Below, one piece after another: positions 2 to 20,540 of a stretch of DNA of 64,000 bases. The position numbers and the translations under genes are program-made. Source of the stretch: Nitrospirales bacterium (GTDB lineage: Bacteria; Nitrospirota; Nitrospiria; Nitrospirales; UBA8639); NCBI GenBank assembly GCA_965223295.1, contig CBDCWC010000003.1, forward strand, positions 288,001 to 352,000, given 5' to 3'. Position 1 is the stretch's first letter, and every line of letters begins with the position of its first letter. The notes beneath the pieces are model-generated. The model had not been told where the DNA came from and did no database searches. It worked only from the letters and a program-made list of their open reading frames with translations.

Positions 2-400
2 ATTCTCGTTGTCGACGATGATGAATCTGGACGAAGAGCTATACGGGCTCTCCTGGAAAATGAAGGATATACATGTCTTGAGGCAGAACACGGAGGCAAG
101 GCATTGGATCTTCTGGGCCAGGCTCAGGTGGACCTGGTCATCACCGACAATAGAATGCCTGTCTTAACTGGATTAGACTTTCTTGAACAGCTGTCAAAAT
201 CAGCACCCTCTAAGCTGCTTCCAGTGGTTGTTTTTAGTGGCAATTTAGGCCCACAGGATAAGGAGAGAGCGTTCAAAGCTGGTGCCTGCGCGGTTCTCGA
301 CAAACCTCATGGTGTGGTAAAATTAGTGCCAAAGATCAATCAAATCTTTACTCAACAGAGTACAAGTAGCAGGGAAAGAGTCATGCCTCACGTCAACTAG
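2..400 (+). CDS. Single-domain response regulator (REC), 5'-truncated by window edge
   Basis: Frame open from base 2: ILVVDDDESGRRAIRALLENEGY...DLVITDNRMP...VVVFSG...LDKP; acidic pocket, phospho-Asp and KP motif present. Confidence 0.85.
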   Translation: MLVVDDDESGRRAIRALLENEGYTCLEAEHGGKALDLLGQAQVDLVITDNRMPVLTGLDFLEQLSKSAPSKLLPVVVFSGNLGPQDKERAFKAGACAVLDKPHGVVKLVPKINQIFTQQSTSSRERVMPHVN

Positions 401-502
401 TTCTCTACGTTCCCTTGGCCTTGCAATCTGATATCTTCGCTCTTTACTATAAGTCAGATATCTCACCACTTGTACCTTGAGGGGAAGGTTTATCAAAACA
501 CT

Positions 503-1159
503 ATGAACAGAATACGTTTTTTAAATTTAGTGACGCTATGTTTTATGATGACTGCCTGCCAATCGGTCGGAAGCGGTTTAAAGACAGTTGATGTCTCTGA
601 ATTAGATTCCAATGGCTTTCCTATCCACACGTCAAATCAAAATCCTGACAACGAGAGATATATCATCAAGCCGGGTGATCAGTTAAGCGTGAAATTCTTT
701 TTCAACCCCGAATTAAATGAAGAAGATCTGATAGTTCGGCCTGATGGATTTATTTCGCTTCAATTGGCACATGAAATCCAGACAGCGGGTCTTACTCCAT
801 CGGAACTGACCAAGATCTTAGCAAAAAAGTACGCTGGACAGCTCAAAAATCCTGAAATTGCGGTGATCGTCCGATCAATCAAAGAGGCCAACAAAATTTA
901 TGTCGATGGTCAAGTTGGGGCACCGGGAGAATTTGAAATGATTGGAACCCTCACCGTGTTACAGGCCATTTCCCTCGCCAGAGGGATGACTGAAGACACC
1001 GCTGACAAGAATAACGTGGTAGTCATACGCCGTGATCAGGGCGGCAAGCCATTCGCCATAAAGGTCGATCTAAATGCAGCACTCAGTGGAAGAGATCTCA
1101 CTCAAAACATTCAGTTACTGCCTCATGACACTGTCTATGTACCAAGATCGTTTTGGTGA
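503..1159 (+). CDS. wza: Short OPX/Wza-family polysaccharide export lipoprotein (Poly_export + one SLBB domain)
   Basis: Lipobox-like MTAC; YIIKPGDQLSV..VRPDG.ISL; IYVDGQVGAPG; ends LLPHDTVYVPRSFW with no C-terminal OM helix; ATG 503 preferred over TTG 470. Confidence 0.85.
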   Translation: MNRIRFLNLVTLCFMMTACQSVGSGLKTVDVSELDSNGFPIHTSNQNPDNERYIIKPGDQLSVKFFFNPELNEEDLIVRPDGFISLQLAHEIQTAGLTPSELTKILAKKYAGQLKNPEIAVIVRSIKEANKIYVDGQVGAPGEFEMIGTLTVLQAISLARGMTEDTADKNNVVVIRRDQGGKPFAIKVDLNAALSGRDLTQNIQLLPHDTVYVPRSFW

Positions 1160-1163
1160 GGCC

Positions 1164-2357
1164 ATGATGAGAATAGGAGCTTTTCAGATGACATCGTCCC
1201 GCCCAAGACATTTCTCAATGATAGTGGGAACTTCGCACCGAACGTACCGGTGGCTCGTATTCATATCTTTTATGATTTTACCCCAGATGGACATCGCAGA
1301 ACTTCAAGCGATTGCTCAGACTTTACCTCAATCAGAAATTGAAGGCTCTTTGAGCCAGGAAAGTTTGGATGAAGCAGCGAATCAAACCTACTCCATCATG
1401 CAACAACAGCTTCAGGCGTATCAGAAACGGTTAGAAGCCTCTGAACGTCGGCTACAGGACTTCAAACAAATACATGGCATCATTTCGCTTGAAACTCAAA
1501 TCAATCTTCTTCTTCAGCAACGTAATGCGCTAGATGACTCGTTTAAAATAGAACAGAATCGCGCTCAGGGCCTTCGAGAAAAGTTGGCTTGGGTACAAGA
1601 TAGAATTAGCCAGGTGCCTAAAGAAATTCCCTTGTCGAGTGTTTTGAGCTCCGAACAAGGAATTATAGGCCAGGCCAAAAATAATTTACTTACACTTCAA
1701 CTGCAGGAACAAGAACTCCTAAATAAATATACTGAAAAAAACCCCCATGTCCAATCGCTTCGAAAAGAAATGGAATTAGTTTCTCAGTTTATCGAGGAAC
1801 AAGAGGCCAACTTGGCGGGAAGCGTGACGACAGGAAAGAACCCGTTGTATCAGGAAATGGAAATGCAGCTCTTTCATACTCAGGCTGATCTGGTTTCGGC
1901 CAAAGCTCAAAGTCAAGTCATTGCTCAACAAATTTCTGAAATTGATAAAAAACTTGAGGAGCTTCGAAGCTTAGAAGTTGAATTTGAGGAATTGAGCCGC
2001 CAGGTTAAAGCCGATGAAAGAAATTACTTGAATTATCTCACCAAAGTTGGAACGACCCCTCCGCAAGATTACCAGATTCAGGTTGGGGATCATCTTGACA
2101 TTAAATTCTTTTTCAACCCTGAACTAAATGAATCTGTTTTGGTGAGACCCGATGGCCGAATTGCCTTGCAATTAGTAGGTGAATTTCCTGTCGTTGGACA
2201 TACAGTTAAAGAATTACGAGAAATCCTGATGAAGAATTATTCAACCCAACTCAAGAACCCCGAAGTTGCGGTATTACTTCGGTCCTCGAATGTTCCAGGA
2301 GACAGTGTAGGAGCAATCGAGGCTGAACCCCGCTCAGAGAATCACAATGGACGATGA
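1164..2357 (+). CDS. Chimeric protein: GumC/Wzc-like coiled-coil region fused to C-terminal Wza-type Poly_export domain
   Basis: Middle resembles the next gene (LQAYQKRLEASERRLQDFK, YTEKNPHV, VTTGKNPLYQ); C-terminus resembles wza (YQIQVGDHLDIKFFFNPELNE.V.VRPDG); start uncertain (1164/1167). Confidence 0.75.
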   Translation: MMRIGAFQMTSSRPRHFSMIVGTSHRTYRWLVFISFMILPQMDIAELQAIAQTLPQSEIEGSLSQESLDEAANQTYSIMQQQLQAYQKRLEASERRLQDFKQIHGIISLETQINLLLQQRNALDDSFKIEQNRAQGLREKLAWVQDRISQVPKEIPLSSVLSSEQGIIGQAKNNLLTLQLQEQELLNKYTEKNPHVQSLRKEMELVSQFIEEQEANLAGSVTTGKNPLYQEMEMQLFHTQADLVSAKAQSQVIAQQISEIDKKLEELRSLEVEFEELSRQVKADERNYLNYLTKVGTTPPQDYQIQVGDHLDIKFFFNPELNESVLVRPDGRIALQLVGEFPVVGHTVKELREILMKNYSTQLKNPEVAVLLRSSNVPGDSVGAIEAEPRSENHNGR

Positions 2358-3831
2358 AACCATAATTGAAAATGCCGTGGCACCCTATCCTTTAGGAAGT
2401 TTGCGAGACATTCTCACAACCATTTTTAAGCACAGAGGTAAAATCCTCCTAGGTTTCCTTCTAGCATTCCTACCTGTCATCGGATGGGTCTTTTTATCCA
2501 CGCCCCACTTTATGGCTGATGCCAGTATCGTACTAAAATTTGGAAGAGAACATATCGTACGACCAGAAGTAGGCACTGCAAAAGAATATGTAGACTTTGA
2601 CCAAGGGGCGGCGATTCAAACAGAGCTCAATATAATTTTTAGTAGAGATCTAGCTAGAAAAATCGTACAGAGCATCGGAATTCATAACCTCTACCCTCAG
2701 TTAGCTGACTCTCCACTCGAGGAAAGTCAACTCATCGCTTCCGCTACATCCAAATTTTTAAAAAATTTGACGGCTGATTCTGTGAACTATTCTAATGTGA
2801 TTGAACTGACATTCTCACATCATGATCCACAAATAGCAGCAACAGCCCTCAACACTCTTATTGATTTGTTGAAGGGGAAACACCTTCAAGTGTTTAGTGA
2901 TCCCAAGGCCTCATTTTTAACGAATCAACTACAGAGCTATGAAAAAAAGCTCAAAGATTCAGAGGAAGGACTGCAAAATTTTAAACGCAAACACAACCTT
3001 TCTTCTCCTCTAAAGCAACATCAACAACGCCTTCTTGATCAGAGGGCAGAATTGGATACGGAATATAAAAAAATCAGGAATGAAATACAAGGCCTAAAAA
3101 GCAAAAGTATAGCACTTGAAGCACAACTGAAAACAGTTCCCCAGACTATTCCACTTACCACTACGGAAGGAGAAGGGGTTTTAAAACAAGCCCGTGAAGA
3201 TTTGTTTGAGCTCAAGCGCCAGGAACAGAGTCTGTTGGGGAAGTACACGGAAGACAGTCTTCCCATTCAAAACCTTCAAAAAGAAATTGAACTTCTAGAG
3301 ATATTTATCAGTCAACAACCCAATGACGAACGTTCAAACACCGTCACAAGTGGGAAAAACCCCATCTTTCAAAACCTGGAGATTGCAAAACTAGAAACTT
3401 CCTCTGCTCTTAAAACGAAACAGGCTAGCATGGAAGTCATTGCTGATCAAATCAAGGAGCTGGACAATAAAATTTTGAGTCTTGATCAATTAAATGAAGA
3501 ACTAACAGTGCTGGAAAGGCAAAAAACGACAGATGAACAAAATGTTCAATTGTATCTGGGAAAAGTGGAAGAAGCCAAAGTTTCAGAAGAGATGGATCGC
3601 CTCCACATGTCCAATATTAGCGTCATCCAAGCAGCAGAAGTCCCTCTACAGCCGACTGGTCGCTCAGCCACACTTAAACTGTTGCTAGGAACTCTCCTTA
3701 GCACAGTCGTCGGCTTTGGCATTGCATTCCTTTCTGAATTCTTGGGTGGCACATACACAAGGCCAGCTCAAGCCACGCAAGATTTAGGGCTTCCAGTGCT
3801 GGCTTCTTTCTATCAAAAAAGTGCGAGTTAG
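2347..3831 (+). CDS. Polysaccharide co-polymerase (GumC/Wzz/Wzc N-terminal family)
   Basis: SLRDILTTIFKHR, N-terminal TM, long coiled coil, NISVIQAAEVP..P, second TM, LGLPVLAS; no fused kinase. Confidence 0.88.
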   Translation: MDDETIIENAVAPYPLGSLRDILTTIFKHRGKILLGFLLAFLPVIGWVFLSTPHFMADASIVLKFGREHIVRPEVGTAKEYVDFDQGAAIQTELNIIFSRDLARKIVQSIGIHNLYPQLADSPLEESQLIASATSKFLKNLTADSVNYSNVIELTFSHHDPQIAATALNTLIDLLKGKHLQVFSDPKASFLTNQLQSYEKKLKDSEEGLQNFKRKHNLSSPLKQHQQRLLDQRAELDTEYKKIRNEIQGLKSKSIALEAQLKTVPQTIPLTTTEGEGVLKQAREDLFELKRQEQSLLGKYTEDSLPIQNLQKEIELLEIFISQQPNDERSNTVTSGKNPIFQNLEIAKLETSSALKTKQASMEVIADQIKELDNKILSLDQLNEELTVLERQKTTDEQNVQLYLGKVEEAKVSEEMDRLHMSNISVIQAAEVPLQPTGRSATLKLLLGTLLSTVVGFGIAFLSEFLGGTYTRPAQATQDLGLPVLASFYQKSAS

Positions 3832-3834
3832 ACA

Positions 3835-5313
3835 ATGTACCTATCTTTTTATGGGCTTCAAAAAGAACCATTTCATACCACACCCGATCCCCACTTTCTT
3901 TTTTTAAGTCCCAGCCATAAAGAAGCTCTTGGCACAATTATTTATGGTATAGAAAAAAAGAAAGGATTTGTGGCGATACTTGGGGAAGTCGGTGTCGGCA
4001 AAACAACTATTCTGCGAGCTTATCTTGAAGGTAAGCGTCAGAACAAACACAAAACGGTATATATATTCAACCCAGTACTGACGTATCAGGAACTTCTGAA
4101 GTCCATACTACGCGGGCTGGATCTAGTTCCAACTCATAGTGATCTCAGTGAAATGATCAACCAACTCCATGAAGCACTCATCATGGAATATCGCTCCAAC
4201 AGTACTGTGGTCGTCGTCATCGACGAAGCTCAAAACATCCCTATAGATACGCTGGAAAACCTTCGAATGCTCTCTAACCTTGAAACCTCAACCGATAAAC
4301 TTATTCAATTTATCTTAATTGGCCAGCCCGAACTTGAAGCACTACTCAACCAACCAAGGTTGCGTCAGCTTCAACAACGAATAGCCATTCAAGCAACAAT
4401 TACCACTCTGACGCTCAAAGAAAGTCAAGATTACATCAAACATCGCATTGCAAGAGCTTCAACTGGTGAACCACGGGTATTTTCCAAGGGGGCCATACAG
4501 CTTATTTGTAAGCATGCACAAGGAGTTCCACGACGCATTAATATGATTTGCGATAATTCACTTAGCACTGGATTTGGGTATCAGGAAAAACCTGTGACAA
4601 CTAAAGTCGTGAAAGAGATCATTGGTGATGGAAGCACACCCGGGTCCTTTCGTCCGTTTAAATGGGTAGCTGCCATCGCGGCTGGCGCCATTTTGTTCTC
4701 AGGATTTTTTATTTGGAAAAACTATCCTCTTAAGGAGAATTTTGACATCTTATCTATTTTCTCAGATAGATCATCCGCCTCAAACACTCAGGTGATGGCA
4801 CAAAAGATATCCGCAGAGACTACTGGGTCAGTCATCGAGCAGGTAAGAGATATGAACGAAAACGAAACCCTCTTAGAGGCTTCCCCACCTCAAGCTTTCA
4901 ATGATATTTCCGAAAAATCTTTATTGCAGAGTTCCTCCTTAAACAAAACGCAATCTCCAGGGAAAGAGATTCAAAAAACAATCGCTAAGGACGACAAAAA
5001 AGTTCCTGTGGCACTAGAAGAAACAGTTCCTAGTACTATCTTTCCTAAACAACAACCACCTGATAAAACTCAGACCGGACCTAACACCATGATCCTTAGC
5101 CAATCAAAGTCTTTTCCGAGGCAAGATTCGACCTCTCCTAGAGTGCGGTCAGTGAATAGCGGAGAAAGCCTCAGCCAAATCACCAAGGAAGTGTATGGCT
5201 CATTTGCTCCGGAGCATCTTTCATGGATCACACAACATAATCCAGACATAGTTGACCCAGATCTTATCCATGTTGGACAGCAATTGGTACTCCCGGATTT
5301 TTCCAAGGAGTAA
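3835..5313 (+). CDS. ExeA/GspA-family AAA ATPase with TM segment and C-terminal LysM domain
   Basis: MYLSFYGLQKEPF, Walker A GEVGVGKT, Walker B VVIDEAQ, LIGQPEL, GVPRRIN; TM ~aa 278-294; VNSGESLSQI...NPDIVDPDLIHVGQQLVLP. Confidence 0.88.
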   Translation: MYLSFYGLQKEPFHTTPDPHFLFLSPSHKEALGTIIYGIEKKKGFVAILGEVGVGKTTILRAYLEGKRQNKHKTVYIFNPVLTYQELLKSILRGLDLVPTHSDLSEMINQLHEALIMEYRSNSTVVVVIDEAQNIPIDTLENLRMLSNLETSTDKLIQFILIGQPELEALLNQPRLRQLQQRIAIQATITTLTLKESQDYIKHRIARASTGEPRVFSKGAIQLICKHAQGVPRRINMICDNSLSTGFGYQEKPVTTKVVKEIIGDGSTPGSFRPFKWVAAIAAGAILFSGFFIWKNYPLKENFDILSIFSDRSSASNTQVMAQKISAETTGSVIEQVRDMNENETLLEASPPQAFNDISEKSLLQSSSLNKTQSPGKEIQKTIAKDDKKVPVALEETVPSTIFPKQQPPDKTQTGPNTMILSQSKSFPRQDSTSPRVRSVNSGESLSQITKEVYGSFAPEHLSWITQHNPDIVDPDLIHVGQQLVLPDFSKE

Positions 5314-5322
5314 TGTGATTCA

Positions 5323-6081
5323 ATGAGTAAAATTTACGACGCTCTGCAAATTGCATACGGCGAACGACTCATTACTGAGAACGGATCAAAGGCTGCACCA
5401 GCTGTCAGCTCGTCTGCTCTTCTAAAAATAGACAGCCCATTTTCTATTTCTCGGCAGTACAAGGAGGCAGAACTTCTAGGGCTTGCCCAACATATTGCAG
5501 CCCGACTAGGGGATCCAAAGAAAAATGTCATTCAATTCATTGGCACTCAAAAAGGGGAAGGAACTTCTACGCTGGTCCGAGAGTTCGCTATGGTTTTAGC
5601 TCAACATAGCACCAAACCAATATTGCTGGTTGAAGCTGATTTAATCCAACCTTCACAGTATCAGGCCTTTGGCATTGATCCCAAACCGCCATTAGAGAAT
5701 CTTTTTGAAGAGGGAAAAGCTCTTGAAGGAGTGGTATCTCAAATTGAGGAATCAAATCTCTATGTTGCAACTCTCTCATCGAAAGTGCAGTCCGCTCTTA
5801 CGGGACAAACCAAGAGTCATGGGAAGACAATGTGGGATAGGGTTCGGGACGAATTTGGACTAATCTTAATTGACTCGTCTCCAGCTCGTGTTACCCCAGA
5901 TAGCCTGGCACTTTGCAATACCGTCGACGGAATTGTTTTCGTGTTGCAAGCTGAAAAAACTCGCTCGACTGTTGCCAATAGTGTCAAGGAACAGATTTTT
6001 ATGCGTGGCGGGAATATATTGGGGCTCGTTCTGACCAAGCTCAAGTTTCACATCCCCGAAGGTATTTACAAGTTACTTTAG
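5323..6081 (+). CDS. CpsD/CapB-family BY-kinase-like protein, probable pseudokinase
   Basis: MSKIYDAL start, GEGTST (K missing), LLVEADL, LILIDSSP, VDGIVFV, ILGLVL; no tyrosine cluster. Confidence 0.8.
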   Translation: MSKIYDALQIAYGERLITENGSKAAPAVSSSALLKIDSPFSISRQYKEAELLGLAQHIAARLGDPKKNVIQFIGTQKGEGTSTLVREFAMVLAQHSTKPILLVEADLIQPSQYQAFGIDPKPPLENLFEEGKALEGVVSQIEESNLYVATLSSKVQSALTGQTKSHGKTMWDRVRDEFGLILIDSSPARVTPDSLALCNTVDGIVFVLQAEKTRSTVANSVKEQIFMRGGNILGLVLTKLKFHIPEGIYKLL

Positions 6082-6311: not shown

Positions 6312-7673
6312 TCAAAGCGCTCCTTGAAGAGACACCATAATAGAGTTGGCATAGAAATCAAATTGGTTAACGTTGGAAAACCGTCTCTGGAAAATGTATT
6401 CTAGCCGAAACCCTAACCATTTCACAGTTCGGTAATCCAATCCTAGTCTGCTAGTTATCTGATTATCGCGTCTATCTGACCTAAGTCCACTATTTGATTG
6501 ATCGTTAAACTTATTGTTGACAAATCTCATTCCACCTCTCAATGCAGCACGTTTTCCCATCTGTTGTGTCGCTAGAAGAGAAGCTCCGGTTTGTGTGATG
6601 ACAGAACTTGAAAACACACCAGATTGACGATTTCCCCGAAAAGCACCAAGGTTCATATTGAACCTCGAAGTAGGATTCCAATTAAGGTTTCCTTGCATAA
6701 AGAATATATCGTTCCCCTGCCCACCATCACTAAAACGCGAACCCGCTGGCTGAGTGATCGGGGCATGATCAAAATTTAGAACTTGGTACCCAGCACGAAA
6801 TTCTCCTGAAAGCCGACTGGTCGCAGCTAACCGCACGCCTGTACTGATCGTATACGAGAAGCTGTCCAACTGGTTATTTTCTTCAAAATCATTGTCATTG
6901 ATTTCGAAACTTAACAACGGAGCAATCTTTGGAGAAACAGGAACAAAAAAGGTCGCATCTGCTCCCGTTGATCGTAGATCTCGAATGGGCGCCTGGTTAT
7001 TATTTTCATAGTTCCATTTCGTGAAAAAAAACCTAAATCTAAATCCTATTTGAGATCCCAGTTTCTCCACTTGCCCAACGAAGGAATCCGTATTCCATGT
7101 CGTCAGATCTCTTTGTTGAAGGTCAAATTCAGAACCTCTCTGATCAAATCCCTCAATATGACCGCCTTTTAACTTGACTTTTAACCCGACAGGAAAATCT
7201 AAATTTAATTGACCCATAACTTCTTGGCTCAAAGCATTATTTTCTGAGAAACGTTGAAAATACTGTTGACTCGCGCGATAGTCAGCCATCAGCTGATGCC
7301 GCCCACCAAAAGGAAGAATGGCTTGAAGTCCAGGAGAAATGTTATAAATAAAATCACTACGTCTTCTTTTGTCAATTCTAAAAATATTATCTGAATAGAT
7401 TACTGCCCCACCCAAAAATGGATGCAGTATTACCGGACCTGCCCTTAAGCCCGTTCCAGGAAAATTTCTGAGAAAAGAAATCTGGTGAAATGGTGCAGCA
7501 CCTCCAGTGAATGCATATGAAGCTTGGGAAACTTGCGCCCAGCACCTTTCAGAGGGTTCTATGAAAGAAAATCCTAGATAGAGACAAAAAACATATACCC
7601 AACATCTCCTTGACCGCAGCCAGGTTGATCCACCTCTGACTAATATTTCGCTGGACTGAGATTTATGCCCCAT
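6312..7673 (-). CDS. Outer-membrane beta-barrel protein of polysaccharide loci (BBP2-like)
   Basis: YSDNIFR...SDFIYNISPG motif, alternating amphipathic strands, C-terminal RFSN...DFYANSIMVSL; convergent on EPS export operon. Confidence 0.75.
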   Translation of the reverse strand: MGHKSQSSEILVRGGSTWLRSRRCWVYVFCLYLGFSFIEPSERCWAQVSQASYAFTGGAAPFHQISFLRNFPGTGLRAGPVILHPFLGGAVIYSDNIFRIDKRRRSDFIYNISPGLQAILPFGGRHQLMADYRASQQYFQRFSENNALSQEVMGQLNLDFPVGLKVKLKGGHIEGFDQRGSEFDLQQRDLTTWNTDSFVGQVEKLGSQIGFRFRFFFTKWNYENNNQAPIRDLRSTGADATFFVPVSPKIAPLLSFEINDNDFEENNQLDSFSYTISTGVRLAATSRLSGEFRAGYQVLNFDHAPITQPAGSRFSDGGQGNDIFFMQGNLNWNPTSRFNMNLGAFRGNRQSGVFSSSVITQTGASLLATQQMGKRAALRGGMRFVNNKFNDQSNSGLRSDRRDNQITSRLGLDYRTVKWLGFRLEYIFQRRFSNVNQFDFYANSIMVSLQGAL

Positions 7674-8227: not shown

Positions 8228-9373
8228 TTACGATTGATTCATTCGTACCACCATATGACTTCGACGATTTTCTTGAAAGCAATTCTCATTGGAATCCTGA
8301 CAGGCAGGTCGTTCTTTGCCATAGGACACGATTTTAATTCGATGTCTCTGCACGCCCAAATTCACTAAATATTCTCGGGCTGCTTCTGCTCGTTTTTTCC
8401 CAAGCACAAGATTGTAATCTTGCGTTCCTCGTTGATCACAATGACCCTCAATCGTTAAGGCTTTCGTAGGATTCGCATGCAGCCATTGGGCACCTTCCTC
8501 CAGATAGCGTGCGGCCTCATTGGAAATACTCCAACTGTCAAACCCAAAGTATATATCATGCACACGACCTCCAGATCCACTGCTAGAGTTACTGGTGCCA
8601 AAAGGTTCTATCTCTGACTCCCTCATCCGCATCGAACCGGAGTCTCTATTATCATTGGCTTGGGCAATGTTCGAATCGGGATTAACATATTCTGGCGACG
8701 GTCCGCCGTTTTCCCGCAGATAAGCTTGAGCCCACGATTCTGGATTAGATTCCATGGCAGAAGCCGAGCTATCACTAAATCCATCCACAGCGCCGTAATT
8801 GGGCCCACTTCCTGGGACTCCCGAATAATCATGCCCATAGTTTGAACGGCTTCCAATTCCACTTCCGTTGGAATCGCCGTTTGATGAGGGATCTCCATAA
8901 AACTCTTGACTGCTCTCGCCTCCTCGCAGATACGCATTCGCCCAGGCTTCGGGATCTGGATTGCTTGACGCTGCTGACCCACTTCCAAAGCCGGTGACTG
9001 GACCATGGTTAGGACCGGAACCATTCACCCCACCATATTGCTGTCCATAATCGGAGCCACTCCCTGGTTCTGATGAAGCTCCCCCATTCATATCTGAGTC
9101 CCCATCTCCACTATTTGACAAATTCGGTGACAATCCCTGACCTGTTCCAGAGTACGGACGACTGCCGTTCACTCTGCCCCCCTGCATCGTTGTGCCATCA
9201 GCGTTGCGAACCATTCTATCGGCAGTCCCATTCATTTCCTCTTCGCTAGAGATCATCTCATCGCCCTCTGAATTTGCTCCATATTCTAGGGAATGCCCAC
9301 TACACCCTGAGACCATAAAAGCCCCAAACACGATAGCAAGAAAAAGCCTATTGTTGGTTTGACTCACGCCCAT
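8228..9373 (-). CDS. OmpA/Pal-family lipoprotein with long G/S/N-rich repeat linker
   Basis: Lipobox VSGC; C-terminal DIYFGFD...IEGHCDQRGTQDYNLVLGKKRA...VSYGKERP...ENRR; AGGAGG RBS. Confidence 0.88.
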   Translation of the reverse strand: MGVSQTNNRLFLAIVFGAFMVSGCSGHSLEYGANSEGDEMISSEEEMNGTADRMVRNADGTTMQGGRVNGSRPYSGTGQGLSPNLSNSGDGDSDMNGGASSEPGSGSDYGQQYGGVNGSGPNHGPVTGFGSGSAASSNPDPEAWANAYLRGGESSQEFYGDPSSNGDSNGSGIGSRSNYGHDYSGVPGSGPNYGAVDGFSDSSASAMESNPESWAQAYLRENGGPSPEYVNPDSNIAQANDNRDSGSMRMRESEIEPFGTSNSSSGSGGRVHDIYFGFDSWSISNEAARYLEEGAQWLHANPTKALTIEGHCDQRGTQDYNLVLGKKRAEAAREYLVNLGVQRHRIKIVSYGKERPACQDSNENCFQENRRSHMVVRMNQS

Positions 9374-17227: not shown

Positions 17228-18070
17228 TCAAGGAAAATCATGATCTGACGATAACACCACATCGCTAGACACTGTTACTTTCTCTAATTCTTCTGTGACT
17301 TCAATCATCCGTTCATCTTGGCTATTCAAAGAAGGAATAGTCTGACGTTCAATATACTTGATAAGACCGACGCCACGTGCAAACCAGACGGTCATCGTAT
17401 CGCTTCCCTGAATCGTTTTTCCACTTTCGGATAAATGCACCTGCATGGTCATTTTGGCTTCTAAACGAAGCGCCTCTGGGTATGTTTCAACAGGAACGCG
17501 TAAGGTCTCCTGTCCTAGCACAGAAGAAACCGCCACGATATCCACTGTTTCAGATTCACCGTCTCGATCAATATCCATACCAAGTTCTAGCCCCCGACGG
17601 TTAAACTGTTCAAACGAACTAGGAACTTCCAAGGGAAATCTGACGATTTGATAAGGGACCAACTGTCGCTCTAAAGTTGTGCCAGGCTTAGATCCATAAT
17701 AGCGGATACCCGCCGCATCACGACGATAGTAACTATCTGATGGTCCTTGATTGCCAGGATTCGTATCATTGAAGACGGTGACTTTAAGACCATCAATGGT
17801 CTTTTCCCCAATCACTTTTGAGACATTCGTAAACTGCGTATTTTTCTCGGCAATCTGGACCATACCACCCTCAATTATGGTGCCACGATACACCCATTCA
17901 TTTCCCACTTGATCAGGAAAATATTCGTGAACGTCGTCAACCTGAAAAGGAGATGAACCAGCAGCATGCGCCTGAACAGACAAGGTCAAGCACAAGAATC
18001 CCAGAAGATACATTCGATACATATGTTGTTGAAAACGCAGAGATAGGAAGGAACACATCATAAGCAACAA
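17228..18070 (-). CDS. Hypothetical secreted beta-rich protein
   Basis: Signal peptide ending AHA; EYFP...GNEWVY and WFARGVGLIK motifs; start uncertain. Confidence 0.65.
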   Translation of the reverse strand: MLLMMCSFLSLRFQQHMYRMYLLGFLCLTLSVQAHAAGSSPFQVDDVHEYFPDQVGNEWVYRGTIIEGGMVQIAEKNTQFTNVSKVIGEKTIDGLKVTVFNDTNPGNQGPSDSYYRRDAAGIRYYGSKPGTTLERQLVPYQIVRFPLEVPSSFEQFNRRGLELGMDIDRDGESETVDIVAVSSVLGQETLRVPVETYPEALRLEAKMTMQVHLSESGKTIQGSDTMTVWFARGVGLIKYIERQTIPSLNSQDERMIEVTEELEKVTVSSDVVLSSDHDFP

Positions 18071-18179
18071 TGTATTATAAACTTATCACAGCATATTCAT
18101 TTCCAGCAAGAAAATATATGACCGAAAACTTACCTTAAGCCTTGTTGCAACAATTCACCATGACAGAAAATCGTCAACG

Positions 18180-18935
18180 ATGAACAACTTATCTGAGGCG
18201 AAGACCAAAAGCTCTGTACCCTTATCAATAACCGTGTTTGGAGGGTCTGGAGTTATCGGTCGTGCAATTGCAACAGAATTTGGACGACGGAACTGGTCGG
18301 TAGGAGTGCACTATCATTACAACCAGGCCACGGCATGGAAAACGGCTGTTGACATTCAAAATTCTAAAGGACATGCCCGTCTTTACCAAGCTGATGTGAA
18401 TGATCCACTGCAAATCCGAACATTCTTTCAATCCTTTTTACATGATTGTGGGGGGCTCAAAATTCTAGTATGGGCTGTTGGAGTTGCACCCTCAAAACTC
18501 CTTCTCAAAACTAGTCCTGAAGATTGGGCGCTATGTCTACACACCAATCTTACTGGAGCCTTTCATGTCCTAAGAGAGGCGGGGCCGATTTTTAAACAAC
18601 AACAAGAAGGTGCAGTGATTTTAGTCGGATCTCTTTCCGGAGAACAAGGCATGGCAGGGCAGGCTGCCTACGCCGCATCAAAAGCCGGATTAATCGGATT
18701 AATGCGTACAACTGCAAAAGAATGGGCTCCCTGGAATATTCGGGTAAATGCCATTTTCCCAGGTTGGCATTCATCACGCTTATCAGCATCAGGAAAAGAC
18801 GTATCCTTTACCCAGCAGACGCATATTCTTCAACGAAGATCTTCACTGAATTCCGTCGCAGAAAGTGTTTATCATTTAGCATTGGCCCAAGGCGTTTCTG
18901 GCCAGATATGGAATCTCGATAGTCGCATCTGGTAG
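18180..18935 (+). CDS. SDR oxidoreductase, FabG-like
   Basis: GGSGVIG, YAASKAG, NIRVNAIFPG; directly upstream of bioD. Confidence 0.85.
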   Translation: MNNLSEAKTKSSVPLSITVFGGSGVIGRAIATEFGRRNWSVGVHYHYNQATAWKTAVDIQNSKGHARLYQADVNDPLQIRTFFQSFLHDCGGLKILVWAVGVAPSKLLLKTSPEDWALCLHTNLTGAFHVLREAGPIFKQQQEGAVILVGSLSGEQGMAGQAAYAASKAGLIGLMRTTAKEWAPWNIRVNAIFPGWHSSRLSASGKDVSFTQQTHILQRRSSLNSVAESVYHLALAQGVSGQIWNLDSRIW

Positions 18936-18978
18936 TTCTTTATATTCGGTGTACATTGCCAGATTGTACCTTCTGAAA

Positions 18979-19734
18979 ATGATTCATCAATCAATATTTA
19001 TCACTGGAACCGATACCCATGTCGGCAAAACAACGATTACGGCCGCATTGCTACTCACAATGCAACGACGAAACCAATCAGTGGGTATACTCAAACCTTT
19101 TGAGACTGGTGTTGATATTGATGAATGCCAACATTCCGACACAGAACGTTTGCGGCGCCTGGTTGACCCAATTCCTTCTTTCGAATCAGTTTGTTTGTAC
19201 CCTTTTCCTCAACCACTGGCTCCGCTATCCGCTGCATATGAAACAGGAACAACCATCGATTTCTCGCGGATTCATTTGCATATTCAAGAACTGGCCACAC
19301 GGCATTCTTTTCTGCTGATAGAAGGTGCAGGAGGCATCTTCACACCTATTACACCCAAACAAACGATACGAGACTTGATCACATTCCTGAATGTTTCTTG
19401 TTTGATTGTAGGACGAACGGACCTTGGTGGGTTCAATCACTGCCGCCTCACGGTGGAAGCTCTGCAACAAGCCAATATTCCTCTGTGCGGCATTGCGCTG
19501 AATACGACCAATTCCTCAAACACGGCGATAACGATTCGCCAGCAACAGTCCACAATCGAGTTGATAAAAGAATGGGCCCCTGTCCCGGTATTTGGGCCAA
19601 TAGACTTTGTTCAGAAGGTTCACACTCACTGGAAGGAAGGCGTCAATCAGTTGGCCGAACACACAGAAATTCAACGGCTAGCCATACACCTTAAGAGACT
19701 GTTGAACAATGATGATATCAACAGCCACATCTAG
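18979..19734 (+). CDS. bioD: Dethiobiotin synthase
   Basis: FITGTDTHVGKT, KPFETG, PLAP, IEGAGG, LGGFNH; last ~12 codons derive from MITE. Confidence 0.92.
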   Translation: MIHQSIFITGTDTHVGKTTITAALLLTMQRRNQSVGILKPFETGVDIDECQHSDTERLRRLVDPIPSFESVCLYPFPQPLAPLSAAYETGTTIDFSRIHLHIQELATRHSFLLIEGAGGIFTPITPKQTIRDLITFLNVSCLIVGRTDLGGFNHCRLTVEALQQANIPLCGIALNTTNSSNTAITIRQQQSTIELIKEWAPVPVFGPIDFVQKVHTHWKEGVNQLAEHTEIQRLAIHLKRLLNNDDINSHI

Positions 19735-19885
19735 TCTTTGAGACTGAACATGTCAGAGGCCTCGGGTCTGTTCAAAAAAGTCCGTTCAGCAAGACCACAG
19801 CCATTTTTGCGCGCGGAGCGTACTGGTACTACGTGAGCACGGGAAAATGGCGAGAACGCCGCTGACGGCTTTTTTCAACAGATCC
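19695..19885 (+). mobile_element. MITE family A copy 2 (191 bp)
   Basis: Ends GAGACTGTTGAA / TTCAACAGATCC; CTTAA duplicated at 19690-19694 and 19886-19890. Confidence 0.88.
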
Positions 19886-19886
19886 C

Positions 19887-20540
19887 TTAATGAAAAGGAG
19901 CCATGAATTGAGCAAACGCGGTTCGACGATCCTTGGCATCTAAAATGCCGGAAGCCACGGCAATCCCATTTGCTCCAGCCTGACACAATTCCGGAACAGA
20001 GTCCGTCGTAATGCCACCAATAGCAAAAACTGGAAGCGGCGTGAGTCGACGGATATATTGCATTCCCTCAATTCCCACGACCGGATCATGATTCGCTTTC
20101 GTCCCAGTAGAAAAAATAGGACCGAAACCCAAATAATCAGCCCCATCCTGAGTAGCCTGTTGCACCTGCTGCGAATCATGGGTGGAGACTCCAATAAACG
20201 TCTCTTTCCTCAGCAAATTTCTTGCTAGACCAATAGGCAGGTCAGTTTGGCCAAGATGCACACCATCTGCTTGCACCGCCATAGCCAAATCGCATCGGTC
20301 ATTCACCACAAAGGCCATGTTCCATTCTTTCGCCATGAGGCGAAGAGTCTTTGCTTGATCATATGCATGCTTCATAGACGTTGTTTTATTCCGATATTGC
20401 ACGATTCGCACACCTGCCCGACCAGCTTCCTGCAACACTTCTGGCAGCGAACAGCGGGGGGACCACTGCTCGTCCAGAATAAGATAAAGGCCATTAAGGT
20501 GGGAGAGAAGATTGTTGCCGGATGTGCCATGGGACGTCAT
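19887..20540 (-). CDS. thiE: Thiamine-phosphate synthase
   Basis: LYLILD, VQYRNK, VVNDRCD, ADGVHLGQTD, IGVSTH, DYLGFGPIF.T.TK, AIGGI. Confidence 0.95.
   Translation of the reverse strand: MTSHGTSGNNLLSHLNGLYLILDEQWSPRCSLPEVLQEAGRAGVRIVQYRNKTTSMKHAYDQAKTLRLMAKEWNMAFVVNDRCDLAMAVQADGVHLGQTDLPIGLARNLLRKETFIGVSTHDSQQVQQATQDGADYLGFGPIFSTGTKANHDPVVGIEGMQYIRRLTPLPVFAIGGITTDSVPELCQAGANGIAVASGILDAKDRRTAFAQFMAPFH

Follow-up and report, generated by a model that had tools for sequence, protein, structure and literature searches.

The open reading frame at positions 1188 to 2357 on the plus strand of the window (the 64,000-nucleotide stretch of a Nitrospirales contig analysed here) can be regarded as established, or very nearly so, as a genuine, expressed-looking gene within one exopolysaccharide export operon of a marine-type Nitrospira. 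An RNA sequencing run (X9) yields no contigs on this stretch and bears neither way on expression. With the same near-certainty its product is composed, after a probable Sec-type signal, of the arm of a polysaccharide co-polymerase (PCP; Motif 2/3, tip included), a short Pro-rich linker, a single D1 domain of the outer-membrane polysaccharide export (OPX) type and a disordered tail. The original prediction of a PCP-like arm joined to a Poly_export domain, encoded between an OPX gene and a PCP gene, was right. The open frame spans 1074 to 2357 on the plus strand and offers two starts, ATG 1164 (397 aa) and ATG 1188 (389 aa). A Shine-Dalgarno-like AGGAG, read from the sequence at 1175-1179 (+), lies 8 nt upstream of ATG 1188, and the start of a homologue that is 96% identical (P0001) corresponds to this same ATG, which is therefore the likelier start, in place of the 1164 first assumed. 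Residue numbers in the following count from ATG 1164.

The N-terminus carries a probable Sec signal peptide (1188-1316, +) with a basic n-region, a hydrophobic core and a small-x-Ala signature (A-I-A) before residue 52. Among the 69 homologues with a long enough N-terminus, a regex heuristic (not SignalP) finds an [AVSTGC]-x-A site past the hydrophobic core in 68, mostly xYA followed by D or E, and a lipobox in none of the 69. Given the small-x-Ala in 68 of 69, the hydrophobic stretch reads as a cleavable signal peptide and not as TM1 of a PCP. The product is most likely exported via Sec and released into the periplasm, where it would be soluble rather than anchored in the manner of a PCP.

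Residues 77-295 (1392-2048, +) constitute a helical arm that is homologous to PCP Motif 2/3. By BLASTP, the arm and residues 189-407 of the PCP encoded by the next gene (2347-3831) are identical at 88 of 221 positions (40%, E 1e-41), and both peptide parallels with that gene reported in the original prediction fall inside this alignment. Residues 48-294 match positions 137-377 of 498 of the NCBIfam model TIGR03007 (XrtA-type chain-length determinant) at 68.4 bits, which is below the curated cut-off of 278.85, and a profile of the fusion family matches residues 212-421 of PslE (9v75) at E 6.8e-5. Five helices are predicted by AF2 in the arm (65-104, 109-150, 158-188, 194-220 and 227-295). When the whole model is compared with Foldseek and VIA, the arm retrieves nothing but long coils of a generic kind (Smc, dynein stalk, chemoreceptors, EmrA, MacA), with no PCP structure among the matches listed, so that the kinship of the arm to PCPs rests on sequence. 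Two conserved loops are read as hinges: P152...P156-L157 (1617-1634, +), which includes a short strand at 154-156 in the model, and G224-K225-N226-P227 (1833-1844, +), with a strand at 223-225. Across 70 fusion sequences, P152, P156 and L157 of the first loop are invariant, and K, N and P of the second are conserved at 100% and G at 99%. The arm tip motif K188-Y189-T190-E191 (KYTE; 1725-1736, +) has K at 100%, Y at 99% and E at 97% in the same 70 sequences, compared with 54-89% for the equivalent K, Y and E positions in 54 PCPs. This motif aligns with T317-Y318-T319-D320 of PslE, and L186, K188, Y189 and E191 align with PslE M315, T317, Y318 and D320, residues described as touching the D1 domain of PslD in the cryo-EM complex, where a Y318A substitution in PslE is reported to weaken PslD binding (PMC13434223). 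At the place of GNVR and TM2 in PCPs, the fusion chain runs on into Poly_export, and Pfam gives no match to Wzz or GNVR at E <= 0.01. Of the features that mark a PCP, the homologous Motif 2/3 arm is present and the two TM helices, the Wzz base and the GNVR/Pro-rich segment are absent.

The Poly_export domain (OPX D1, or PES) occupies residues 299-373 (2058-2282, +), as located with Pfam, BLASTP, VIA and Foldseek. PF02563 is matched at residues 299-371 (E 4.8e-19), and 43 of 73 positions (59%; BLASTP E 2e-24) are identical to the product of the previous gene (503-1159), which substantiates the parallel drawn earlier between the C-terminal part and the Poly_export domain of that gene. In NCBIfam, residues 301-375 match positions 1-75 of 169 of the XrtA/PEP-CTERM export model TIGR03027 at 59.1 bits, below the curated cut-off of 180. 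VIA superposes the domain on the class-3 OPX WzaB (9n9a) with Z 12.5 and an rmsd of 1.4 over 74 residues, and Foldseek matches it to Wza at E ~1e-5. The helix-strand tip loop Y359...Q-L-K-N-P-E367 (2238-2264, +) is conserved at 100% for Y, K and P and at 96-99% for Q, L, N and E in the 70 fusion sequences, and QLKNPE is also present in the neighbouring OPX. As mapped from the VIA superposition, this loop would correspond approximately to the alpha1-beta5 loop of WzaB, which is described as binding the PCP (PMC12819527); the D1 of Wza is described as binding the apical loops of Wzc (PMC12819527; PMC13469938). As defined in PMC9603273, an OPX has an N-terminal Poly_export domain followed by at least one SLBB. 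The fusion has PF02563, placed C-terminally with ~24 disordered residues after it; an N-terminal Poly_export with SLBB is absent, as are the lipobox, Wza_C and the C-terminal aromatic porin motif. Neither SLBB, SLBB_2 nor Wza_C is matched in Pfam at E <= 0.01, and the lack of SLBB and TM2 proposed originally is borne out. The Gly/Ser-rich tail (2289-2354, +) is variable and predicted to be disordered, with pLDDT < 50 for residues 374-397 and a dN/dS of 0.58. The AF2 monomer is of middling quality overall (pLDDT 70.8, pTM 0.41) and leaves the placement of D1 relative to the arm unfixed because the linker residues 297-299 have pLDDT < 50.

The preceding gene (503-1159, +) encodes a class-3-type OPX lipoprotein of 218 aa with a lipobox Cys, Poly_export (48-123) and one SLBB (SLBB_2, 131-213; Pfam), without Wza_C and with the C-terminus ...PRSFW. 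In the OPX alignment the Cys and the FW end are conserved, and TIGR03027 is matched at E 7.7e-34, below cut-off. The downstream gene (2347-3831, +), the start of which overlaps the end of the fusion gene by 11 nt, encodes a PCP of 494 aa without a kinase domain (TIGR03007 E 9.9e-35, below cut-off; weak GNVR match). It is followed by an ExeA-like AAA ATPase with a C-terminal LysM-like region (3835-5313, +; TIGR03015 E 4.8e-73; AAA_22) and by a tyrosine-kinase-like protein (5323-6081, +; TIGR01007 E 1.5e-17 and TIGR03018 E 5.7e-16, both below cut-off). On the opposite strand lies the gene of an outer-membrane beta-barrel (6312-7673, -; BBP2_2 E 3.9e-30; EpsL and TIGR03016 partial), a candidate porin partner of the class-3 OPX. 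A link to exosortase was considered and set aside, the sole Exosortase_EpsH (PF09721) match of the genome being on another contig.

The gene is not confined to this assembly. Of 25 genomes examined from the genus, 13 (G000, the present genome, among them) contain full-length orthologues, defined by a match spanning both halves, and the other 12, five of which are 92-99% complete, yield no full-length match. The fusion protein is represented by at least 120 clusters at 58-96% identity, the best 120 of which are all 313-434 aa long (389 aa here from ATG 1188) and all contain PF02563, and by four full-length representatives among 1.84 billion. Members with an organism name, Nitrospira sp. Ecomares 2.1 being one, all belong to Nitrospira, Nitrospirales or Nitrospirota, and the family is, as these names indicate, taxonomically narrow. 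Databases label it only generically as 'polysaccharide biosynthesis/export family protein' and assign no named family, in agreement with the first impression that the architecture is not a described component. A PCP gene lies downstream of the fusion in 11 of 11 relatives' loci and an OPX gene upstream in all 8 that reach far enough; the OPX-fusion-PCP order recurs in L018, a divergent locus with 45% identity in the fusion. An assembly artefact is ruled out by the orthologues in 13 of 25 genomes with conserved gene order. Ten of the 11 relatives' loci keep the frame intact, and the orthologue of L006 has an in-frame TAA. Relaxed selection, raised at the outset as a possible objection, is not seen in the median dN/dS of the arm (0.088, 22 usable pairs) or of D1 (0.034, 25 pairs), both of which indicate strong purifying selection; the signal and tail give values of ~0.5. 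Relatives are 59-70% identical to the window protein for the fusion, 55-59% for the OPX and 48-54% for the PCP, such that the fusion is better conserved than its two neighbours. A genome that also possesses a fusion locus (G005) has a sister locus (L019) with the order OPX-PCP-ATPase-kinase and without the fusion gene, as does locus L017 of G012, and the OPX and PCP genes of these fusion-less loci are similar in size.

OPX and PCP proteins normally dock with one another and carry polysaccharide across the periplasm. We tentatively favour, at a little under an even chance, the reading that the fusion forms a soluble ring that lies between the tips of the PCP and the class-3 OPX, where it would act as an in-line spacer of the conduit. 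The fusion would form a ring, as both parents do, with its D1 ring seated on the tips of the inner-membrane PCP in the manner of an OPX D1 ring, and with its own PCP-like tips plugged into the ring that the short class-3 OPX lipoprotein forms with its D1; this lipoprotein would itself lie under the beta-barrel porin. With the arm extended, the periplasmic conduit would be lengthened by very roughly 130-200 A. The docking surfaces of solved PCP-OPX complexes correspond to the arm tip and D1 tip loop, and these are the best-conserved parts of the fusion, which fits such an arrangement. Both ends of the arm, as judged by homology to PslE 212-421, would be at its base and D1 follows ~8 residues later, so that D1 is expected to face away from the arm tip; a D1 hung from the membrane-proximal end of the arm would be the geometry that an in-line module needs. 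In structures published in 2026, polysaccharide exits via the PCP ring, the tips of which are plugged into the OPX D1 ring, and short class-3 OPX leave a gap that is closed by PCP stretching. The class-3 WzaB is described as projecting only ~62 A (PMC12819527), and a large periplasmic space is described for Nitrospira, marine species included (PMC3600790). Stacked D1 rings have a natural precedent in OPX proteins that carry 3-5 Poly_export domains in tandem. A wide periplasm alone does not demand the fusion, since the sister loci L019 and L017 do without it and 12 of the 25 genomes, the five nearly complete ones among them, have no full-length match, and the account in PMC9603273 gives no correlation between OPX length and periplasm thickness. 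The tip and loop motifs are common to the parents and so cannot show which partner binds which, and a complex prediction run without controls on fusion residues 66-376 with PCP 185-412 and OPX 20-218 (scores of 0.14 and 0.20, with the mark at 0.32) speaks neither way. If the in-line spacer is true, the conduit is modular with a length that can be set by added rings, which bears on polymer export in bacteria with wide periplasms. In a further version, which we hold to be distinctly improbable, the fusion would be a self-compatible stacking module: since it combines a PCP-type tip with an OPX-type D1 socket, its rings could dock with one another as well as with the PCP and the OPX, and conduit length would change stepwise (PCP, n rings, OPX). 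The conduit could then adjust to the unusually large and variable Nitrospira periplasm, and among Wzx/Wzy-type export machines this would be the first known case of a modular extension piece.

The conserved tip and D1 loop, on a probably soluble protein, would equally suit a regulator or decoy whose tip fills the OPX D1 ring or whose D1 caps the PCP tips, so as to gate or tune export or chain length without being part of the conduit; we consider this somewhat unlikely. The gene is accessory, as sister loci do without it and presumably still export, and the Snap-Flex model describes PCP-OPX contacts as dynamic with a micromolar Kd (PMC12819527). One face would suffice for a decoy, yet strong purifying selection acts on the two faces and along the entire arm of 220 residues, and the operon position between the putative partners together with the translational overlap suggests stoichiometric co-production. 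If it were a decoy, the fusion would be a new kind of periplasmic export regulator. PCP arms self-associate. The fusion arm is a paralogue of these arms and might lie side by side with them in a mixed or concentric ring, with D1 as a collar near the inner membrane, an arrangement we regard as unlikely. PslE is described as an octamer (PMC13434223) and the fusion tree mirrors that of the adjacent PCP, but a lateral partner accounts neither for how strictly the D1 tip loop and the arm tip are conserved nor for the missing base domain and TM2. Very unlikely is a minimal PCP held in the inner membrane by an uncleaved signal anchor, whose own cage would dock the OPX and serve a second polymer or a Wzy-independent step. 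The uncharged N-terminal stretches of fusion homologues (median 24 residues, range 12-34) are long enough for a membrane span; however, the hydrophobic core of the window protein has only ~11-13 residues, the small-x-Ala, which occupies a conserved position in 68 of the 69 homologues, points to cleavage, and the Wzz base domain and TM2 are absent.

The 28/30 nt identity between 692-721 and 2103-2132 to which the original prediction drew attention is real. It is no sign of recent exchange, because the aligned D1 DNA of fusion and OPX has diverged (124 of 216 nt identical, 57%), the same codon is used at only 18 of 43 identical D1 residues (42%), and the peptide of the block is largely invariant within the fusion family (K314, F315-F317, N318, P319, L321 and N322 invariant; E320 and E323 at >=90%). 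These 57% nucleotide and 42% codon identities rule out a recent gene conversion event involving the D1 copies of the two genes. Within the block, fusion and OPX share 8 of 10 codons (P ~0.02, uncorrected for the block having been picked post hoc). The 17 fusion rows group into a single clade in the arm tree (SH-aLRT 93), which lies outside every PCP group of the genus; they are again a single clade in the D1 tree (89), where it joins the OPX groups in an unresolved polytomy. Recent duplication of the adjacent genes is thus unsupported, and the family is, to judge by these trees, old; as quick trees rooted at the midpoint or on paralogues, they do not establish the order of events or the donor. 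One idea is that a single tandem duplication whose breakpoints fell within the OPX gene and the PCP gene would yield the observed gene order. A functionless remnant of such a duplication, as this order and the in-frame TAA of L006 might suggest, is hardly credible and is refuted, as far as sequence evidence reaches, by the dN/dS of 0.03-0.09, the frame intact in 10 of 11 loci, the >=120 clusters and the age of a family that is a single clade in both trees.

Among known systems, the class-3 OPX (M. xanthus WzaB 9n9a; EpsY; TIGR03027) have in common with the fusion the D1 fold, its conserved tip loop and a locus with PCP and beta-barrel. Their D1 is N-terminal, whereas that of the fusion is C-terminal, behind ~220 residues of PCP arm, and the fusion is without SLBB, lipobox and the C-terminal aromatic porin-binding end. 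With the kinase-less PCPs (the neighbour; P. aeruginosa PslE 9v75; TIGR03007) it shares the Motif 2/3 arm, the hinge loops and the YT(D/E) tip, which in PslE contacts the OPX D1, but not the Wzz base, the GNVR/Pro-rich segment, TM2 or the cytoplasmic part, and its N-terminus reads as a cleaved signal. OPX with tandem Poly_export (P0127, P0129, P0137, P0139, P0144, P0179, P0253) also bring extra D1 modules into the periplasmic conduit, although within one OPX chain, mostly with SLBB and with no PCP arm; in the fusion, the extra D1 is on a separate secreted protein with a PCP arm. Whole-gene PCP-OPX or OPX-PCP fusions (P0136, P0150, P0246) likewise have both parts in one frame, but there both proteins are complete, with TM2 and an internal lipoprotein signal with lipobox; they look like joined neighbouring genes, perhaps processed back into two proteins, whereas the present fusion retains one sub-domain of each parent only. 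In tripartite efflux pumps, the periplasmic adaptor (membrane-fusion) proteins bridge an inner-membrane machine to an outer-membrane channel through a helical hairpin that makes tip contacts, and E. coli GfcC is a soluble periplasmic protein with Wza-like domains that resembles the beta-grasp domains of Wza, not D1. The likeness of both to the fusion is conceptual, by description, with no sequence-family match: HlyD-type lipoyl/beta-barrel domains have no Pfam match in the fusion at E <= 0.01, and where EmrA and MacA match in structure, the match is to generic coiled coil. The fusion fits no place in the current OPX and PCP classifications, and its label in databases is generic; as a secreted, strongly conserved protein composed of exactly the two docking elements, it is a ready-made probe of the PCP-OPX interface.

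A single plus-strand ORF does carry both a PCP (polysaccharide co-polymerase)-like coil and a Poly_export domain (D1), as had been observed from the sequence. The frame is open over 1074-2357 in a co-directional gene run, and the predicted ORF from 1164 stands as a frame but less well as a start, as translation more likely begins at ATG 1188, with AGGAG 8 nt before it and a 96% identical homologue (P0001) beginning there. Counting residues from ATG 1164, Pfam places Poly_export at 299-371 (E 4.8e-19), and in NCBIfam residues 48-294 match positions 137-377 of a 498-position chain-length-determinant model and residues 301-375 match positions 1-75 of a 169-position export-protein model; the proposed domain scan thus recovers both partners. 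Residues 77-295 align by BLASTP with residues 189-407 of the downstream PCP (40% identity over 221 residues, E 1e-41), an alignment that includes both peptide parallels first pointed out, and the match to the upstream outer-membrane polysaccharide export (OPX) gene is 59% identity over 73 residues (E 2e-24). The SLBB domain and second PCP transmembrane helix (TM2) are missing as first noted, with no TM2 and no Pfam match to SLBB, Wzz or GNVR in the fusion. The 28/30 nt match between the two D1 copies is also real and arises because the encoded peptide is largely invariant across the fusion family; the D1 DNA is 57% identical, with the same codon at only 18 of 43 identical residues.

The fusion lies between a 218-aa OPX-type lipoprotein with Poly_export and SLBB domains (503-1159, plus strand) and a 494-aa PCP without kinase domain (2347-3831, plus strand), the ATG of which overlaps the fusion end by 11 nt. 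A co-directional ExeA-like AAA ATPase with a LysM-like end follows the PCP gene, then a tyrosine-kinase-like protein (5323-6081, plus strand) and, beyond it on the opposite strand, a BBP2_2/EpsL-like beta-barrel. All NCBIfam matches at the locus are to XrtA/PEP-CTERM-locus families and fall under the curated cut-offs, and the sole Exosortase_EpsH match of the genome sits on another contig (C2:1310995-1311753). The kinase-like protein, for which every family score is under cut-off, has a P-loop-like stretch G-E-G-T-S-T without the usual Lys and a single Tyr near its C-terminus, and may be a pseudokinase like those reported for some EPS systems. A 381-aa ORF at 8228-9373 (minus strand) has a lipoprotein-like start, an OmpA/Pal-like C-terminal end and a long Gly/Ser/Asn-rich region, within which two segments of roughly 60 residues resemble each other. 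The gene upstream (2-400, plus strand; 17449-19998 in locus L014) has a receiver domain at its end. Elsewhere in the genome, on C2, ATPase, kinase-like and PCP genes occur together once more but with no adjoining OPX or fusion (1452000-1460000, L015), and two tandem, more distant OPX genes lie beside a 618-aa PCP-like ORF (1403500-1408500, L016).

The fusion is a real, conserved gene. A 3,500-nt contig from sequencing run X1, which may be the source sample, aligns to 450-3797 without a gap and with 6 differences, and runs of a second study gave shorter contigs over all bins with no indels or joints reported. In a survey of 41 genomes, a match covering both halves was found in 13 of 25 from the genus (the window's own included) and in 0 of 16 from six other genera; the 12 genus genomes in which it was not found include five that are 92-99% complete. 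The architecture and gene order expected in other genomes are thus present, and the suspicion of an artefact of one assembly without spanning reads did not hold. The PCP lies downstream in 11/11 relatives' loci and the OPX upstream in all 8 that extend far enough (three end at contig edges), and the order is kept in a divergent branch (L018) with a 45% identical fusion. Among draft loci, the orthologue of L006 (genome G023) has an in-frame TAA giving 239 + 152 aa, the flanking OPX and PCP of L005 (G003) are in pieces with one TGA noted, and the PCP of L002 is divided over two frames; the L006 stop and L005 breaks could be sequencing errors or decay. A word-indexed search gave 258 similar proteins (E <= 0.001), the best 120 of which are all 313-434 aa, 58-96% identical and PF02563-positive, with generic or wrong product names and, wherever the source name bears an organism, Nitrospira, Nitrospirales or Nitrospirota. 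An exhaustive search of 1.84 billion representatives returned four full-length fusions (P0121, P0122, P0124, P0125) plus fragments; all other matches, whole-gene fusions aside, cover just the arm (PCPs) or just D1 (OPXs). In a protein atlas the family is one Nitrospirota cluster of 84 members, 99% with Poly_export. As far as the databases used show, it appears restricted to one Nitrospirales lineage.

Quick maximum-likelihood trees with 17 fusion proteins place their arms together in a single clade (SH-aLRT 93), outside every PCP group of the genus; their D1 domains likewise group as one clade (89), in a polytomy with OPX groups. A single clade in both trees means that the fusion arose once and is old, and neither tree points to a donor. 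It is only an idea that the order OPX, [PCP arm::OPX D1], PCP is the trace of one tandem duplication whose breakpoints fell within both genes, the base domain and SLBB being lost afterwards.

An AF2 model from a 70-sequence alignment (pLDDT 70.8, pTM 0.41) has five helices (65-104, 109-150, 158-188, 194-220, 227-295), three-residue strands at 154-156 and 223-225, and a D1 domain at 303-373, with residues 1-27, 39-65 and 374-397 disordered. The modelled D1 matches the class-3 OPX WzaB (9n9a; Z 12.5, rmsd 1.4, 74 residues) as well as Wza D1 in several structure entries. Structurally, the arm resembles only coiled coils in general; by sequence, family profile positions 74-283 match 212-421 of the solved PCP PslE (9v75, E 6.8e-5). 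In the PslD-PslE cryo-EM structure, as reported in the accessible part of PMC13434223, PslD D1 touches PslE Motif 3 at M315, T317, Y318 and D320; the Y318A substitution makes the complex weaker and reduces Psl production. HMMER aligns PslE M315-R-T317-Y318-T-D320 with fusion L186-N-K188-Y189-T-E191, in which K188, Y189 and E191 are conserved in 100%, 99% and 97% of 70 fusion sequences (83%, 89% and 54% in the same columns of 54 PCPs). Loops 152-157 and 224-227, with invariant P152, P156, L157, K225, N226 and P227, lie on either side of the short helices three and four and would form the hinge of a Motif-3-like hairpin. For WzaB of M. xanthus, which projects only about 62 A, the available text of PMC12819527 describes PCP binding via the D1 apical alpha1-beta5 loop (R106/R107) and porin binding via a C-terminal Phe-Phe. 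From structural-alignment ranges, the alpha1-beta5 loop corresponds approximately to fusion Y359..Q-L-K-N-P-E367, which is 96-100% conserved and common to the adjoining OPX. Because both ends of the arm are at its base and D1 follows about eight residues on, with two conserved prolines between, D1 should lie opposite the tip, as would suit a module that receives a PCP tip from beneath and presents a PCP-like tip on top.

These features suggest, possibly though short of probably, a putative ring-forming in-line spacer of the periplasmic conduit, in which the stack would run from PCP tips through fusion D1 ring, fusion arm, fusion tips, OPX D1 and SLBB to the beta-barrel. At 1.5 A per residue, the helix lengths would add very roughly 130-200 A; the two solved two-tier complexes, PslD-PslE included, cover about 230 A of periplasm (PMC13434223 and PMC13469938), and Nitrospira, marine species included, are described in the portion available of PMC3600790 as having a large periplasmic space. 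The adaptor or extender of the original prediction is partly supported, as it fits the conserved tip, D1 loop and orientation; against it stand sister loci of the genus with similar OPX and PCP but no fusion, one of them sharing its genome with a fusion locus, and the absence of the fusion from about half of the sampled genus genomes. Periplasm thickness also did not correlate with OPX length in a survey, according to the text available of PMC9603273. A periplasmic decoy or regulator, for which the same surfaces and the fusion-less loci would speak, is unlikely. Less likely again is a lateral partner within the PCP ring. An anchored minimal PCP would need the N-terminus as an uncleaved anchor. 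In homologues a basic stretch precedes a hydrophobic core, after which comes, at a conserved position, a small-x-Ala site (mostly xYA, then D or E), detected by a permissive regex in 68 of the 69 sequences whose N-terminus is long enough; a regex for a lipobox matched 0/69, and the window's fusion has a short core (about 11-13 residues) and A-I-A. Heuristically, this argues for a Sec signal that is cleaved off, leaving the protein soluble in the periplasm, and makes the anchored form improbable. A functionless remnant can practically be dismissed: the relaxed selection held out as a possibility is contradicted for the arm and D1, with median Nei-Gojobori dN/dS (11 orthologues, pairs with unsaturated dS only) of 0.088 (22 usable pairs) and 0.034 (25), the N-terminal 76 residues and tail giving 0.49 (27) and 0.58 (36), and the fusion is the best conserved of the three proteins (59-70% identity to the window's copy; OPX 55-59%, PCP 48-54%).

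The putative spacer differs from both parent classes. In the available text of PMC9603273, an OPX is defined by an N-terminal Poly_export with one or more SLBB domains after it; the fusion falls outside that definition, as it does outside that of a PCP (no base domain, no TM2), and has one sub-domain in common with each. The OPX beside the main fusion clade ends in ...PRSFW in the alignment (window copy, 503-1159); those of the fusion-less loci L017 and L019, of L018, and P0248 and P0265 are longer at the C-terminus by about 30 residues, the last of which form an aromatic-rich motif. A largely title-level search of the full-text literature found no description of a PCP-arm plus Poly_export protein, and a term search of PMC9603273 gave none, although its supplementary OPX-architecture tables may; its sole relevant-looking passage on fusions or tandem domains concerns another protein. 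OPX-like database proteins in which Poly_export occurs 3 to 5 times in tandem, in most cases with one SLBB after the repeats (P0127, P0129, P0137, P0139, P0144, P0179, P0253), show that stacked extra D1 rings are a natural solution; no discussion of this architecture was found in the available part of the OPX classification paper. Complete PCP and complete OPX also occur in single frame, in either order, in P0136, P0150 and P0246, which look like joined neighbour genes and could be real processed fusions or read-through gene calls; unlike the fusion, they still have TM2 as well as an internal lipoprotein signal. The fusion would thus add to the known OPX and PCP proteins a variant architecture with one sub-domain from each.
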